Origin: Alphaproteobacteria bacterium
GTDB lineage: Bacteria; Pseudomonadota; Alphaproteobacteria; MPNO01
Length of the DNA stretch: 64,000 bases
Direction: 5' to 3'
Assembly: GCA_964291675.2 (NCBI GenBank)
Contig: OZ219866.1
Location: 672,001-736,000, forward strand
Position numbers and translations under genes: made by a program. A model generated the notes under the pieces. That model did not search any database. It saw only the letters and a program-made list of their open reading frames with translations, and had not been told where the DNA came from. Position 1 is the stretch's first letter, and each line of letters begins with the position of its first letter. This document shows, in pieces, positions 9,162 through 25,569 of this stretch.

Positions 9162-10202
9162 ATGAACAAAACAGGCTATCGCCCGGTTATTGTATTGTGT
9201 TCGGGGCGTTGCGGATCGACGATGTTGTCGAACATAATGAACAGTCATCCGGATATACTCAGCGTCTCCGAGTTTTTTACGTTCCACAGCGTTGCGTTGT
9301 TCAGCCGATGGCGCATGACCGGAAGCGGAATGTGGAAGATTCTTACGCGACAACCGCAGCTGGTTCGTTATTTGCTGAGAAAAGATTACGAAGAATTGTT
9401 ATACCCGTTCGACGATTCCGATTCCCGGTTCACGCGAAAGAACGTGCCGCCGGTTCTGTGCGTCACACTTCCGCATCTGACAGACGACTACGAAAAACTG
9501 TTCGACGATATGGCGCCGGTCGTTCGAGATTTTCCGCGCCAGTCCCCCGCGAACCATTGTCGTAGCCTCTTCGGGTGGCTGTGCGAAAGGTTCGATCGCA
9601 AGGTCTGGGTGGAACGCTCGGGCGGATCTTCGATGTACGCGTCGAGGCTGATGTACAGATTCCCCGAAGCGAAGATCATCAACATGTATCGGGACGGGCG
9701 GGAGACCGCGATTTCCATGTCTCGTCATCATCCGTTTCGAGGAATCGCCCCGTATATTCTTGCCCTGCAGAAACGCGGATACGACCCTTTGAAGGTGGAA
9801 GCGAAACATAGCGAGTTCTGGGATTCGACGGGGCTGCGCCTGCAACCCCTGAAGTATTTGTCGCGCTTCCCGATCCCGATGTCCGCCGACCGGCTGGAGA
9901 TCCGGCATTTCGGCGCGTTATGGAGTCAGATGGTCGAGGCATCCCAGAATTTTCTTCAGCGCCATCCGCGGGAACGAATTCTGGATGTCCGGTTCGAGGA
10001 CCTGCAACAGGACACGGAGCGGGAGGTCAGGCGTATCGTCCGGTTTATTTCTCCCGATCTGGACGATGAGGATTGGGTGCGGGAAGCGTCCAGGATACCG
10101 AGGCCGACCCGGTCGAAGTTCGCGCGACTCGGCCTGGAAGAGCAGGCCATATTGACGGAGGCCTGCCGGCCGGGCCTGGAGCGGCTCGGCTATCCCGTGT
10201 AA
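9162..10202 (+). CDS. PAPS-dependent sulfotransferase 1
   Basis: 5'-PSB loop SGRCGSTML, 3'-PB RDGRETAISMS, VRFEDL, C-term LERLGY. Confidence 0.92.
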   Translation: MNKTGYRPVIVLCSGRCGSTMLSNIMNSHPDILSVSEFFTFHSVALFSRWRMTGSGMWKILTRQPQLVRYLLRKDYEELLYPFDDSDSRFTRKNVPPVLCVTLPHLTDDYEKLFDDMAPVVRDFPRQSPANHCRSLFGWLCERFDRKVWVERSGGSSMYASRLMYRFPEAKIINMYRDGRETAISMSRHHPFRGIAPYILALQKRGYDPLKVEAKHSEFWDSTGLRLQPLKYLSRFPIPMSADRLEIRHFGALWSQMVEASQNFLQRHPRERILDVRFEDLQQDTEREVRRIVRFISPDLDDEDWVREASRIPRPTRSKFARLGLEEQAILTEACRPGLERLGYPV

Positions 10203-10304
10203 CGCCGTTGCGATGGAAGAGCGAGGGCACGCGAAACGAAACCCCAAAGGCGGTGACGCCGTAAGGGTGACGCGGCTTCGCGCGTTCGGAACCCGGGCAG
10301 CCCG

Positions 10305-11732
10305 TTGACGAACAACGAAACACCGGATCGTCCGGCGTCCCGCCCCGGCGCGGGGGACGCGGCGGAGGGCGTCTACACGACCGGTTCGGTCGGGCGCCAC
10401 CTGCTGCGGATGGCCGCGCCCGCCTCGACGGCGCTCCTGTTCATCTTCCTCGTCGACGTGGTGACCCTCTTCTACATCTCGCTGTTGCAGGACGAGCGGT
10501 TGATCGCCGCCGTGGGGCTCGCGAGATTCATCGAGTATTTCGTCCTTGCGATCGGGCTCGCCTTCGCGTCGGCGGCGACGGTGCTGGTCAGCCAGGCGCT
10601 CGGCGCCGGGGACAAGGAACTCGCCGTGCGGCGGGCGACCTCGTGCCTGGTCATCACCGTGGCGGTTCTGTGCGCCGCCGTCGGAGCGGTACAGATCTTC
10701 CGCGGCGCGGCTCTCGCTTCCTTCGTGGAGCCGGGCGCGGTCTTCGACGCGGCGGATCTCTATCTGGAGATCGCGCTCTACTCCGTCCCCCTCGCGGCGG
10801 TGAGCATGGCGGCGGGCGCGATATTGCGCGGCGCCGGCGACGTGCCCCGATCCGTCGCGGTGACCGTTTCGGGCAGCCTCGCGGCCCTGTTGGTCAACCC
10901 GGCGCTGATTTTCTGGGCCGGTCTGGGCGTGGAGGGCGCGGCCTGGGCGCTGCTGGCGGATCGCACGATCAGCGCGGCGCTCGGCATCTGGTTCGTCGTC
11001 CGCGTTTACCGTCTCCTGAAGCCGCCCGATATCGCCGAGGCGGTTCGCGACGCCAGGACGGTTCTGGCGATCGCCGGGCCGGCCGCCCTGTCGGAGCTCG
11101 CGCCGCCCACGATCTGGTTGCTGGCGACCGCGTGGGTCGCGGCTTTCGGAGACAGCGCCCTCGCGGCATGGGCCGTGATCGCGCGAATCACCTTGCTGGC
11201 GGGGTGCGGGATCCTGGGATTGACCGTCGCGCTCAACCCGGTGCTGGGGCAGAATTACGGCGCCGGCGAGGCTGGCCGGACCGCGGCGAGTCTTCGCAAT
11301 GCGATGACGTTCTCGATTTGCTATGTCATCGCGGCCTGGGCGTTGTTCGCCTCGACGTCGGGCGCGATCTCACGAATGTTCGATCTGACCCCGGAGGCGT
11401 CGGGCATCGTGCGCATATATGCGCTGTACGGTTTCGGCGCGATCGTCCTGGCAAGCATGTCGACCCTGTGCCGGCCGGTATTCTATCATTTCGGGCGTTC
11501 CTTCTGGACGACGGCTCTGGACTGGCTGGCGAACGCCCTGACGCTGTTTGCGCTGATCCTGCTCGTCGGACTGCCGGACGGGGAGCGCGTCGCGTTCGCG
11601 CTCGGTGCGTCGGCGGCGGTGTGCACGGTGCTGATCGGCAGAGCCATCGCGGGCGCTTTTTCGCTCGGGCTCGCCTGGTACCTCGTCGCGGGGGTGGGGC
11701 CGCCGGAAGCATCGTCGAAGGATTCGGCATGA
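10305..11732 (+). CDS. MATE family transporter
   Basis: About 12 hydrophobic segments; GSVGRHLLRMAAP, VSQALGAG, LNPVLGQNYGAG, GLGVEGAAWA. Confidence 0.9.
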   Translation: MTNNETPDRPASRPGAGDAAEGVYTTGSVGRHLLRMAAPASTALLFIFLVDVVTLFYISLLQDERLIAAVGLARFIEYFVLAIGLAFASAATVLVSQALGAGDKELAVRRATSCLVITVAVLCAAVGAVQIFRGAALASFVEPGAVFDAADLYLEIALYSVPLAAVSMAAGAILRGAGDVPRSVAVTVSGSLAALLVNPALIFWAGLGVEGAAWALLADRTISAALGIWFVVRVYRLLKPPDIAEAVRDARTVLAIAGPAALSELAPPTIWLLATAWVAAFGDSALAAWAVIARITLLAGCGILGLTVALNPVLGQNYGAGEAGRTAASLRNAMTFSICYVIAAWALFASTSGAISRMFDLTPEASGIVRIYALYGFGAIVLASMSTLCRPVFYHFGRSFWTTALDWLANALTLFALILLVGLPDGERVAFALGASAAVCTVLIGRAIAGAFSLGLAWYLVAGVGPPEASSKDSA

Positions 11733-23650: not shown

Positions 23651-23706
23651 CCTGCGATGTTCGTCGCCAGGCTTATCCCCGGCGAGCCCATCGCGCGCCG
23701 TCGCGA

Positions 23707-25569
23707 CTATCCGCCGGCCTGCCTCGCGCTAGTCAGGGATTCCAGCACCCGGTCGGCCGCTTCGTCGACCGAGATATTCGTCGTGTCGATGCGCAGTTCC
23801 GGGTTCTCCGGCGGCTCGTAGGGCGAATCGATCCCGGTGAAGTTCACCAGATCGCCCCTGCGGGCCTTCGCATACAGGCCCTTGGGATCGCGCGCCTCGC
23901 AAACCTCGACGGGCGTGTCCACGAAAATCTCCACGAACTCCCCCTCCTCCGCCAGCCCGCGGGCCATCTCGCGTTCCGACCGGAACGGCGAGATGAAAGA
24001 GACGATCACGATCAGCCCCGCGTCGGCCATCAACCTGGCGACTTCCGCGATCCGGCGAATATTCTCCACGCGATCCTCTTCGGTGAAACCCAGATCCCGG
24101 TTGAGGCCGTGGCGCACGTTGTCGCCGTCGAGCAGGTAGGTATGGCTGCCGAGCGACTGAAGCTTCTGTTCCACGCGGTCGGCGATCGTCGACTTGCCGG
24201 CGCCGGACAGCCCGGTGAACCAAAGAATGCAGGGCCTCTGGCCCATGGCGCGCGAACGCGCCTCCTTGTCCACCTTCAACGCCTGCCAGACCACGTTGCT
24301 GGCGCGGCGGAGCGCGAAGCGGATCACGCCCGCGCCAACCGTTGCATCGGTGAGCGGATCGATCAGCACGAAGGCGCCCGTCGCCCGGTTGTCCTCGTGG
24401 GGATCGAACGGCACGGCGCGGTCGAGGGAGATCTTGCAGTAGCCGATCTCGTTCGACTTGAGCGTCTTCGCGGCCATCCGGCCCAGATCGTCGACATCGA
24501 CCCGATGCGCCAGCTCGGTTATCTGCGCGACCGCGGACCCGGCCGCGAAACGCGCCGAATAGCGCCGCGCCGGCACCATGCGGTCGGTGTCCATCCAGAT
24601 CAAATGGGCGGCGAACTGATCGGCGAGGTCGGGAAGCCGGTCGGTTCCCGAGAGCATGTCCCCGGGACGCACGTCGATGTCGTCGGCCAGCACGAGCGTG
24701 ATCGACTGGCCCGCCACCGCCCGTTCCAGGTCTCCCGACGGTCCGAGAATACGCTCCACCGTGGACGTTCCGCCCGACGGGCTGACGGCCACCGGCATCG
24801 CGCGTTCGACGGCGCCGGACAACACGGTGCCGCCGAAGCCGTTCAACGCCGAATTGGGGCCGTCGACGCGCTCGACCGGAAGGCGGAACGCACCCGTTTC
24901 GGCGGACCCGCCCGTTTCCGCGCTCTCGAGTATCTCCATCAGCGTCGGACCGTCGTACCAGGGCATGCGGCCGCCGGAGACGAAAAGGTTCTCGCCGGTC
25001 AGCGCGGACACCGGAACCGCGTCCACCCGTTCCATTCCCAGTTCGCGGGCGAACGGCTCGTACGCCTCGACGATGGATGAGAACGCCTGCCGCGCGTAAT
25101 CCACGAGGTCCATTTTGTCGACCGCGAGCACCGCCCGGCGGACCCCCATCAGCGAGACGATGTAGCTGTGGCGGCGAGCCTGGGTGAGTATGCCCTTGCG
25201 CGCATCGACCAGAATCAGGGCAAGGTCGGCGACCGACGCGCCCTCGGCCATGTTTCGCGCATACCGCAAATCGCCCGGCACATCGACCGTGACGAATTTG
25301 CGCTTGTCGGTTTCGAAATAGCGGTAGGCGACGCCGCCGGCGTATCCGCGTTCGCGCTCGGACCGCGGGCCGTCGGTTGGCGCGGCGGAGACCGAATGCC
25401 GGTCGTCGAAGACGCTTTTCGAGTCGTGGAGCAGCCGGCCGAGCAGCGTGGATTTTCCGTCATCCGCCGAGCCGAAGACGATGAACCGCAGGTCCGACCC
25501 TGCGCCGCGGGGGGCGAGAAAGACATCCACATCGAGCGGAGCTGCGTCACCGGTCCTGCTCACCGACAT
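23707..25569 (-). CDS. cysNC: CysN/CysC fusion with degenerate GTPase domain and intact APS kinase
   Basis: [10 protein letters not shown]-term; C-term [48 protein letters not shown] 25569 preceded by GAAGGGG. Confidence 0.9.

Follow-up and report, generated by a model that had tools for sequence, protein, structure and literature searches.

We analysed a gene island encoding two sulfotransferases and an AlkB-like oxygenase in a 64,000-nucleotide stretch of DNA (hereafter the window), located at C2:672001-736000 of the alphaproteobacterial genome G000 (4.8 Mb in 2 contigs, GC content 69.4%, 93.7% complete). Genes were called by open reading frame (ORF) listing combined with Pfam and NCBIfam profile scans, in which bit scores were compared with curated cut-offs. 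This recovered every gene named in an original prediction, made from the sequence of the window alone, of a system that hydrolyses or hydroxylates a substrate, sulfates it and exports it (Table 1). Five of these genes, encoding the sulfotransferases ST1 and ST2, a MATE-family transporter, an N-terminal nucleophile (Ntn) acylase and a fusion of AlkB-like and GlnE-like domains, are co-oriented as had been described, and a resistance-nodulation-division (RND) permease gene converges on ST2 from the opposite strand (stop codons 10 bp apart). The RND gene had been called correctly, and its partner, a membrane fusion protein (MFP) gene whose end overlaps the RND start by 4 bp, had gone unmentioned; cysQ, implied to lie on the minus strand, is on the plus strand and convergent with cysNC. 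Read directly from the sequence, the MATE stop and acylase start overlap as ATGA at 11729-11732, a coupling that indicates co-production of the two proteins, not the order of their reactions. Promoter and terminator scans were not above shuffled sequences (2 promoters vs 2.5 expected, 15 terminators vs 11.8); one promoter-like site, at 9102-9131, precedes ST1.

Table 1 Genes and other features of the window, with the profile evidence for each
Feature	Position	Strand	Evidence
ST1 sulfotransferase (module A)	9162-10202	+	PF13469 77.8 bits (cut-off 27), also PF00685
MATE-family transporter (module A)	10305-11732	+	PF01554 99 bits; TIGR00797 125 bits, below cut-off 147
Ntn (penicillin-amidase family) acylase, predicted periplasmic (with ST1 and MATE)	11729-14194	+	PF01804 710 bits
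AlkB-like/GlnE-like fusion, 813 aa (module B)	14271-16712	+	PF00487 (FA_desaturase), PF03710 (GlnE), PF08335 (GlnD_UR_UTase)
ST2 sulfotransferase (module B)	16848-17894	+	PF13469 78.9 bits (cut-off 27)
RND permease (facultative accessory)	17905-21228	-	PF00873 490 bits
RND periplasmic adaptor MFP	21225-22571	-	TIGR01730 161 bits (cut-off 94.9)
cysQ (PAP phosphatase), extra copy	22907-23650	+	TIGR01331 290.6 bits (cut-off 228.8)
cysNC (ATP-sulfurylase GTPase subunit and APS kinase)	23707-25569	-	NF004035 809 bits (cut-off 715)
cysD 3' remnant, ~55 aa	25575-25739	-	TIGR02039 positions 234-292 of 294, E 0.68
Truncated Mutator-family transposase gene, 297 aa	25932-26825	-	PF00872 profile positions 9-260 of 379
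Full Mutator-family transposase gene, 398 aa	31509-32705	+	
Second penicillin-amidase-family gene, 804 aa	35343-37757	+	PF01804 491 bits
Amino-acid ABC transporter	5502-8934		
Single ORF, possible toxin-antitoxin pair	1810-2517	-	FitA-like ribbon-helix-helix antitoxin and PIN toxin domains

Searches of the window proteins by tblastn against fetched regions of three further genomes (G041, G043 and G355) recovered the same five core genes in each, with 66-85% protein identity between the window and the other islands and with all five core ORFs intact in 4/4. G041 carries RND (64% identical, adjacent), MFP (62%), a 50-aa cysC fragment, ST1 (77%), MATE (79%) and acylase (79%), next to which fusion (66%) and ST2 (82%) form an inverted pair, with transposase-type genes on both sides. 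G043 retains the order of the window, with cysD and cysNC (52%) directly upstream of ST1 (83%), followed by MATE (81%), acylase (81%), fusion (70%) and ST2 (85%), and has an RND gene (49%) about 5 kb away. The G355 island comprises cysNC (62%) and ST2 (78%) then fusion (66%), convergent with ST1 (75%), MATE (76%) and acylase (77%); RND was not found in the 40 kb read around it. Thus ST1, MATE and acylase occur together in constant order, and fusion and ST2 are adjacent, in all four islands. Because the same genes remain together in three other genomes despite rearrangement, they represent more than a chance neighbourhood, and the co-occurrence that a synteny check had been suggested to reveal is there. 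By the same comparison, cysNC is usually linked and RND/MFP and cysQ are accessory, so that the RND pump, divergent in G043 and missing from the region read in G355, no longer figures as the pathway component it was proposed to be. The amino-acid ABC (ATP-binding cassette) transporter upstream of ST1 was rejected as part of the unit, having no counterpart in the three other islands.

Beyond these four genomes, the orthologue clusters of fusion (P0001-P0021), ST2 (P0099-P0111) and acylase (P0219-P0239) have ten longest-contig sizes in common (11321, 15625, 21873, 23372, 116447, 591413, 2666790, 4200769, 4566314 and 5250787 bp), which suggests, indirectly, that they share the same contigs. G043 also carries a paralogous set 15 kb upstream of its island (acylase 73%, sulfotransferase 58%, fusion 47%, RND 29% and a further sulfotransferase 40% identical). 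Within about 36 kb of that genome (G043:C1:3109500-3145000, loci L147-L149), five sulfotransferase genes are thus clustered with cysD-cysNC, a MATE gene and pairs of fusion paralogues, acylases and RND systems. Separately, in contigs from X1, X2 and X6 the 5' portion of RND (20997) is connected to the 3' end of fusion (16635) through 13 extra letters, which hints at an alternative island arrangement in co-occurring relatives; contigs from X3 and X6 belong to relatives, 85-95% identical, and are uninformative on gene order.

The distribution and composition of the island point to lateral transfer. The RpoB protein of G000 shares 93% identity with that of a same-genus genome, 74% with that of a same-order genome, and 67% and 66% with those of G041 and G043, which share 79% with each other. 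Island proteins are 77-85% and island DNA 80-84% identical to G041 and G043 (fusion lower, at 66% and 70%), hence the island is closer than RpoB. Fusion orthologues above 37% identity were found in none of 11 same-genus genomes, and the spread is patchy elsewhere (a fusion orthologue in 2/41 genomes around G041, an ST2 orthologue in 1/400 evenly drawn genomes of the class). ST1, fusion and ST2 have a GC content of 56-62% (ST1 56.5%) vs 69.4% for the genome, GC content drops likewise in G041 and G043, and that of the island is 5-13 points below the genome value. Transposase genes border the island here and in G041. Same-genus synteny (92-93% nucleotide identity) resumes at about 27365, positions 4000-9100 have no syntenic match in same-genus genomes, and cysNC has matches within the genus only at 76-80% identity and at other places. 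Since the core is found in three other genomes with its modules rearranged, is missing from the 11 same-genus genomes searched, and is low in GC, it represents a mobile functional unit. From these sequence comparisons we conclude that the gene set is a horizontally transferred functional unit, not a chance neighbourhood, in line with the conserved, co-inherited unit that had been proposed.

Several other features of the region were recorded. The Mutator-family element, of which the window holds one truncated and one full transposase gene, is multi-copy in same-genus genomes, and read-run depth over it is 5-20 times that of its flanks. 'Sponge metagenome' runs contain small shares of the stretch only, and no habitat is drawn from them. 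Near the start of the window, a single ORF combines antitoxin and toxin domains, possibly because a toxin-antitoxin pair has been fused or mis-joined.

We then considered what the core proteins are likely to do. ST1 and ST2 are the only genes in the 4.8-Mb G000 genome with PF13469, and they are paralogues, 46-47% identical. Among 55 family sequences, conservation is complete or at least 90% at G12-R-C-G-S-T17, E34, R174-D-G-R177 and S182; we take these residues to be the 5'-phosphosulfate loop, the 3'-phosphate motif and the catalytic base, as in the protein-tyrosine (TPST) and CurM sulfotransferases. An AlphaFold2 (AF2) model of ST2 (pLDDT 88.2) adopts a sulfotransferase fold by Foldseek, with TPST1/2 (TPST1, E 2.5e-7) and the CurM sulfotransferase domain (4.5e-7), at target-normalised TM-scores of 0.5-0.6, and olefin-synthase (OLS) sulfotransferase domains as top matches; the mycobacterial Stf9 and Stf1 rank 14 and 24. 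The model supports the fold and says nothing on the acceptor. By profile, by motifs and by the predicted ST2 fold, ST1 and ST2 belong to the family of sulfotransferases that depend on 3'-phosphoadenosine 5'-phosphosulfate (PAPS).

The N-terminal 360 residues of the fusion protein align with solved AlkB 8f6t (E 1.2e-43), and H133, H137, H163, H167, H168, H268, H306, H309 and H310 are invariant across 19 sequences. With all His boxes kept, the AlkB-type oxygenase identity put forward initially is upheld. The accompanying 'GlnE' label is not: the C-terminal tail scores 93 bits against NF010706 (cut-off 724), which led us to reject a GlnE glutamine-synthetase adenylyltransferase and to retain a GlnE-like fold only. 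The tail matches the adenylylation domain of GlnE 3k7d weakly (E 1e-4). In this weak alignment, GRLG...ADVELIFL is paired with GKLG...SDLDLIFL of 3k7d and GxLG...DxE is kept, the Asp of 3k7d 'VDARLRP' faces Gly, and the first tail carboxylate is E or R in the close orthologues P0007, P0012 and P0017. On our assumption as to which tail and 3k7d residues are catalytic, the tail is probably non-catalytic, with a regulatory or binding role. Rubredoxin (PF00301) was not found in 4/4 island-bearing genomes (G000 being 93.7% complete), so this is not a canonical alkane-hydroxylase system and an alkane as substrate is unsupported; an alkane-degradation operon was likewise rejected, with no alk catabolic genes nearby.

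The acylase belongs to the penicillin-amidase (Ntn) family by its PF01804 match and by its putative N-terminal nucleophile, in the motif SNAW at residue 254, where solved beta chains begin. It also has an N-terminal hydrophobic signal or anchor. Its best solved relative is D-succinylase 7eby (2e-74), and glutaryl-7-ACA acylase is also close. A PvdQ or N-acyl-homoserine lactone (AHL) acylase was rejected, since NF051460 gives 39.9 bits against a cut-off of 950 and the E values of PvdQ chains are 1e-9 to 1e-11 vs 2e-74 for D-succinylase. These sequence relatives argue against a specificity for long acyl chains, and the idea that the pathway opens with release of a lipid chain by the acylase is conceivable but unsupported. 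Both the sulfation with PAPS and the active site of AlkB are located in the cytoplasm; a periplasmic acylase would therefore act either before uptake, on an amide coming in, or after MATE transport, on the product that has been exported. Two further members of the penicillin-amidase family are encoded in the genome, one in the window (Table 1), 29-31% identical to the island acylase, and one at C2:288493-290781, 48% identical.

The genes for PAPS synthesis are damaged in the G000 island. In a PF01583 search of this genome, the cysNC of the island is the only intact adenosine 5'-phosphosulfate (APS) kinase; the other copy, at C1:717823-719144, is frameshifted, broken into at least three frames and without an adjacent cysD. 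The cysD remnant upstream of the island cysNC matches the intact G043 CysD over residues 242-295 (54 aa, 41% identity, E 7e-9), and no other CysD was found in G000. Its 5' part has been replaced by the truncated Mutator-family transposase gene, a junction spanned with 0 differences by contigs of two studies (X1 and X2, covering 24994/25429-26109), one of which may be the assembly source. With CysQ and CysNC above their cut-offs and CysD present as a remnant only, the three-function PAPS module is not fully intact in G000. A Sat-type ATP sulfurylase is encoded elsewhere in the genome (NF003166, 452 bits), so APS could still reach the intact CysC domain of CysNC. CysH was not recognised in G000, where PF01507 gives one weak 'hypothetical protein'-type match. 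The island-linked cysQ is an extra copy, as the genome has another one, 54% identical to it, at C2:1904349-1905095. The two predicted contributions to PAPS turnover were accordingly only partly borne out: a dedicated PAPS supply is supported by cysNC, linked in 3/4 islands and present as a remnant in the fourth, and is weakened by the loss of cysD here, and the extra cysQ of G000 is linked to the island in none of the three other genomes.

These losses bear on the possibility that the genes were co-transferred without serving a common pathway, or that the island is decaying and no longer works in G000. The truncation of cysD by an insertion sequence (IS), the frameshifted second cysNC, the transposase genes at the borders, the short cysC fragment of G041 and the variable linkage of RND and cysQ would all fit such a history. 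However, the five core ORFs are intact in all four genomes, catalytic motifs are conserved, the modules have been kept through three different rearrangements, MATE and acylase are translationally coupled, and the Sat-type sulfurylase can feed the CysC domain. On balance, we consider decay or a lack of common function unlikely.

Pairing of oxygenase and sulfotransferase genes is visible beyond the island itself. We surveyed seven further loci of the sulfotransferase family (33-50% identical) and found an oxygenase within 6.5 kb of the sulfotransferase in five, the two without one being in G258 and G172. Both G200 loci have a P450, accompanied in one (G200a) by an MpaB/Lcp-like oxygenase and cysD-cysNC and in the other (G200b) by an MpaB-like oxygenase; G139 has an MpaB-like oxygenase, G455 a P450, and G406 a luciferase-like monooxygenase with a PapA-type acyltransferase. 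A paralogous locus in G041 reads, in order, fusion', P450, sulfotransferase' and Rieske oxygenase. P450 genes are scarce in these genomes; counted against all P450 genes of each, those within 3.5 kb of a family sulfotransferase number 2/3 in G200, 1/2 in G041, 1/10 in G455, 0/2 in G139 and 0/6 in G000. The recurrence of oxygenase neighbours in five of seven loci and in the G041 paralogue locus bears out the predicted pairing and, at the level of gene content, supports a 'hydroxylate, then sulfate' logic. Locus L065 (2224-9862), from a gammaproteobacterial metagenome-assembled genome, has a fusion-YcaO pair next to cysNC-cysD, genes for a flavin amine oxidase and a UbiA prenyltransferase, and a sulfotransferase gene of this family. 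With CMAS-like methyltransferases and a transporter of the MMPL/sterol-sensing type in its vicinity, L065 may be a sulfated prenyl-lipid cluster.

The fusion architecture is itself widespread, with 98 matches in many phyla, and its other contexts differ from that of the island. We surveyed 80 loci (L016-L095) of distant members, 31-47% identical. A fused SagC/D-YcaO cyclodehydratase (TIGR03604 262 bits, cut-off 219) lies directly downstream of the fusion in 39/80, a conserved protein of about 372 aa and unknown function is found in 35/80, NHLM-type ABC exporters in 35/80, and an NHLP-leader-domain protein of about 430 aa, some 155 nt upstream, in 20/80. Sulfotransferase homologues were found in 2/80 of these loci and MATE or acylase homologues in 0/80. 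In a tree of 61 fusion sequences (54 loci with an ORF >600 aa and 7 added copies, with L016 omitted as a duplicate of the G041 paralogue), all six copies linked to sulfotransferases group in one clade apart from the others (SH-aLRT 100, branch length 1.16). G000 encodes one copy of the YcaO type as well, at C2:1695637-1697877, with an NHLP protein beside it. With the island, one distinct clade within this uncharacterised family acquires its first context.

Other observations concern the family at large. Its distant members come from metagenome-assembled genomes of Nitrospirota, Acidobacteriota, Gemmatimonadota, Latescibacterota and Pseudomonadota, and the gene tree conflicts with taxonomy. Several sponge-type record titles occur, only among these wider fusion-family loci. 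A membrane di-iron oxygenase inside a cluster of the thiazole/oxazole-modified microcin (TOMM) type appears to be undescribed, with no paper among Creative Commons (CC)-licensed PMC articles and bioRxiv preprints combining YcaO, NHLP and 'fatty acid desaturase'. When metagenome contigs were scanned with the fusion protein, none of the 32 pattern matches proved to be a relative, and an Atlas search returned only the query protein's own family.

This wider context raises the possibility that the island matures a sulfated peptide in the manner of ribosomally synthesised and post-translationally modified peptides (RiPPs). The fusion and the TPST-like sulfotransferases would then modify a peptide encoded elsewhere, for example at tyrosine, MATE or RND would export it, and the Ntn hydrolase would trim it in the periplasm. 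Such a role would agree with the NHLP-leader proteins, cyclodehydratases and NHLM exporters that adjoin other fusion members, and with the position of TPST1/2 as best structural matches of ST2; GlnE-type domains, moreover, act on protein tyrosine. Yet a search with the NHLP-precursor profile gave no ORF in the window, G041 and G043 islands (best E 2.6; G355 was not searched), and no conserved intergenic DNA with room for a small gene was found, as blastn blocks between the window and G041 or G043 start at the ST1 start codon and break between genes. The island ORFs also lack a YcaO protein, a peptidase-containing ABC exporter and a leader-binding domain, the acyl sulfotransferase domains of CurM and OLS score nearly as well as the TPSTs, and the sulfotransferase-linked fusions occupy a separate, long-branched clade. 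Peptide maturation is therefore, in our judgement, quite improbable.

The four islands yielded no genes for a polyketide synthase (PKS), a non-ribosomal peptide synthetase (NRPS), a glycosyltransferase or a precursor peptide (with the NHLP profile search covering the window, G041 and G043), and the substrate would thus be made elsewhere. The same gene inventory bears on sulfation of an envelope glycan or lipopolysaccharide (LPS), as by rhizobial NodH/NodPQ or LpsS, in which the MATE-like protein would be a MOP-type flippase. The linkage of cysNC and cysQ does resemble the dedicated PAPS supply of the nodPQ type, and MATE and Wzx flippases share a superfamily. But the four islands have no glycosyltransferase, polysaccharide polymerase or polysaccharide export gene, the transporter matches MatE and no Wzx or polysaccharide model, and an oxygenase and an Ntn amidase would have no role there, all of which makes this explanation highly improbable. 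Nod/LPS-type and RaxST-type systems were rejected more generally, as glycosyltransferase and Nod genes, a precursor peptide and a peptidase-ABC exporter are all lacking.

We give about an even chance to the interpretation that this is a laterally mobile island for the PAPS-dependent oxidation, sulfation and export of a lipophilic small molecule that it does not make itself. The chemical steps and the substrate are inferred throughout from the gene identities, the conserved linkage, the transfer between distant lineages and the recurrent oxygenase-sulfotransferase pairing described above. The membrane AlkB-like di-iron oxygenase would add a hydroxyl at the cytoplasmic face, and ST2 would move sulfate from PAPS onto it. 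ST1 may sulfate a second position or a related intermediate, after which MATE would carry the anionic product into the periplasm. There, the Ntn acylase would cut an amide bond, on the exported product or on an incoming precursor, and the RND/MFP pair, where present, may expel the product. In the ancestral island, cysD-cysNC would have provided PAPS; in G000, APS from the Sat-type sulfurylase would be converted to PAPS by the CysC domain, and the extra CysQ would clear the inhibitory by-product PAP. The substrate could be derived from a host or the environment, or belong to the lipids common in bacteria, for instance the quinones or isoprenoids.

Several observations weigh against this oxidise-sulfate-export interpretation. 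Protein-tyrosine sulfotransferases are among the closest structural relatives of ST2, and most other members of the fusion tree (55) sit in RiPP-like clusters, so that a peptide substrate is conceivable. No rubredoxin that could serve the AlkB-like domain as electron donor was found in the four carriers. The acylase's role and position are guesses, RND/MFP and cysQ are not conserved parts of the island, and the cross-links between orthologue clusters are indirect. Finally, with its cysD destroyed and its borders marked by IS elements, the island may be decaying in G000.

A more specific, and rather unlikely, version of the oxidise-sulfate-export interpretation would make the island a bacterial counterpart of animal phase I/II/III metabolism, mobile among host-associated Alphaproteobacteria, with which symbionts would hydroxylate, sulfate and expel lipophilic compounds of the holobiont (terpenoid, quinone or sterol-like). 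For sponge merotriterpenoid sulfates, no pathway had been identified in the account given by one review, which raises the possibility that sulfation is encoded in another genome (PMC5618424). If the phase I/II/III version is true, symbionts would be the agents sulfating such natural products, and a host-derived substrate would bear on which organisms make the sulfated lipids and terpenoids found in marine holobionts. More generally, the island would add a transferable sulfation route in which two sulfotransferases are combined with an AlkB-type oxygenase, export is coupled with deacylation, and PAPS is managed by genes of its own. To our knowledge, only a handful of dedicated sulfation pathways have been described in bacteria, namely those for Nod factors, mycobacterial sulfolipids, RaxX and some antibiotics. 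The five-gene core provides a concrete unit for expression and for screening of sulfated products.

We found no description of this gene combination, or of the fusion family, among CC-licensed PMC papers and bioRxiv preprints. By analogy, the closest precedent of the island is the mycobacterial cyp128-stf3 operon. In the published account, the Mycobacterium tuberculosis P450 is proposed to hydroxylate dihydromenaquinone and Stf3 then sulfates it, yielding sulfomenaquinone (S881; PMC6469627). Both systems combine a monooxygenase with a PAPS-dependent sulfotransferase, which sulfates a new lipid hydroxyl in the mycobacterium and may act in a similar way here, and the mycobacterial product reaches the outer envelope (PMC6469627). 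They differ in the oxygenase, a P450 there and an AlkB-like di-iron enzyme with a GlnE-like tail here, and in that the operon, with its single sulfotransferase, lacks MATE, an Ntn acylase and linked cysNC/cysQ. Compared with AlkB/AlkG/AlkT, the island fusion aligns with AlkB and keeps its His boxes, but the fusion partner is a GlnE-like domain and not rubredoxin, and the alk catabolic genes are missing from the surroundings. The YcaO/NHLP-linked members of the fusion family, also uncharacterised, have the same two-domain architecture, at 31-37% identity, but are flanked by an NHLP-leader protein on one side and a fused cyclodehydratase on the other, whereas the island copy belongs to a separate clade. 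Export-coupled periplasmic deacylation is familiar from PvdQ in pyoverdine maturation and from ClbM/ClbP in colibactin. There, too, a transporter is coupled to a periplasmic amide hydrolase, as MATE and the Ntn acylase would be here, but the island lacks NRPS and PKS genes and its acylase is nearer to D-succinylase and glutaryl acylases. RaxST/RaxX and NodH/NodPQ combine a sulfotransferase with a dedicated PAPS supply of the cysD/cysNC type and an exporter, to which the island adds a second sulfotransferase, an oxygenase and an acylase, without Nod-factor genes. Hence the principle of joining an oxygenase, a sulfotransferase and a PAPS supply is known, and what is new is the AlkB/GlnE-like fusion, the pair of sulfotransferases, the MATE-coupled Ntn acylase and the mobility of the whole.

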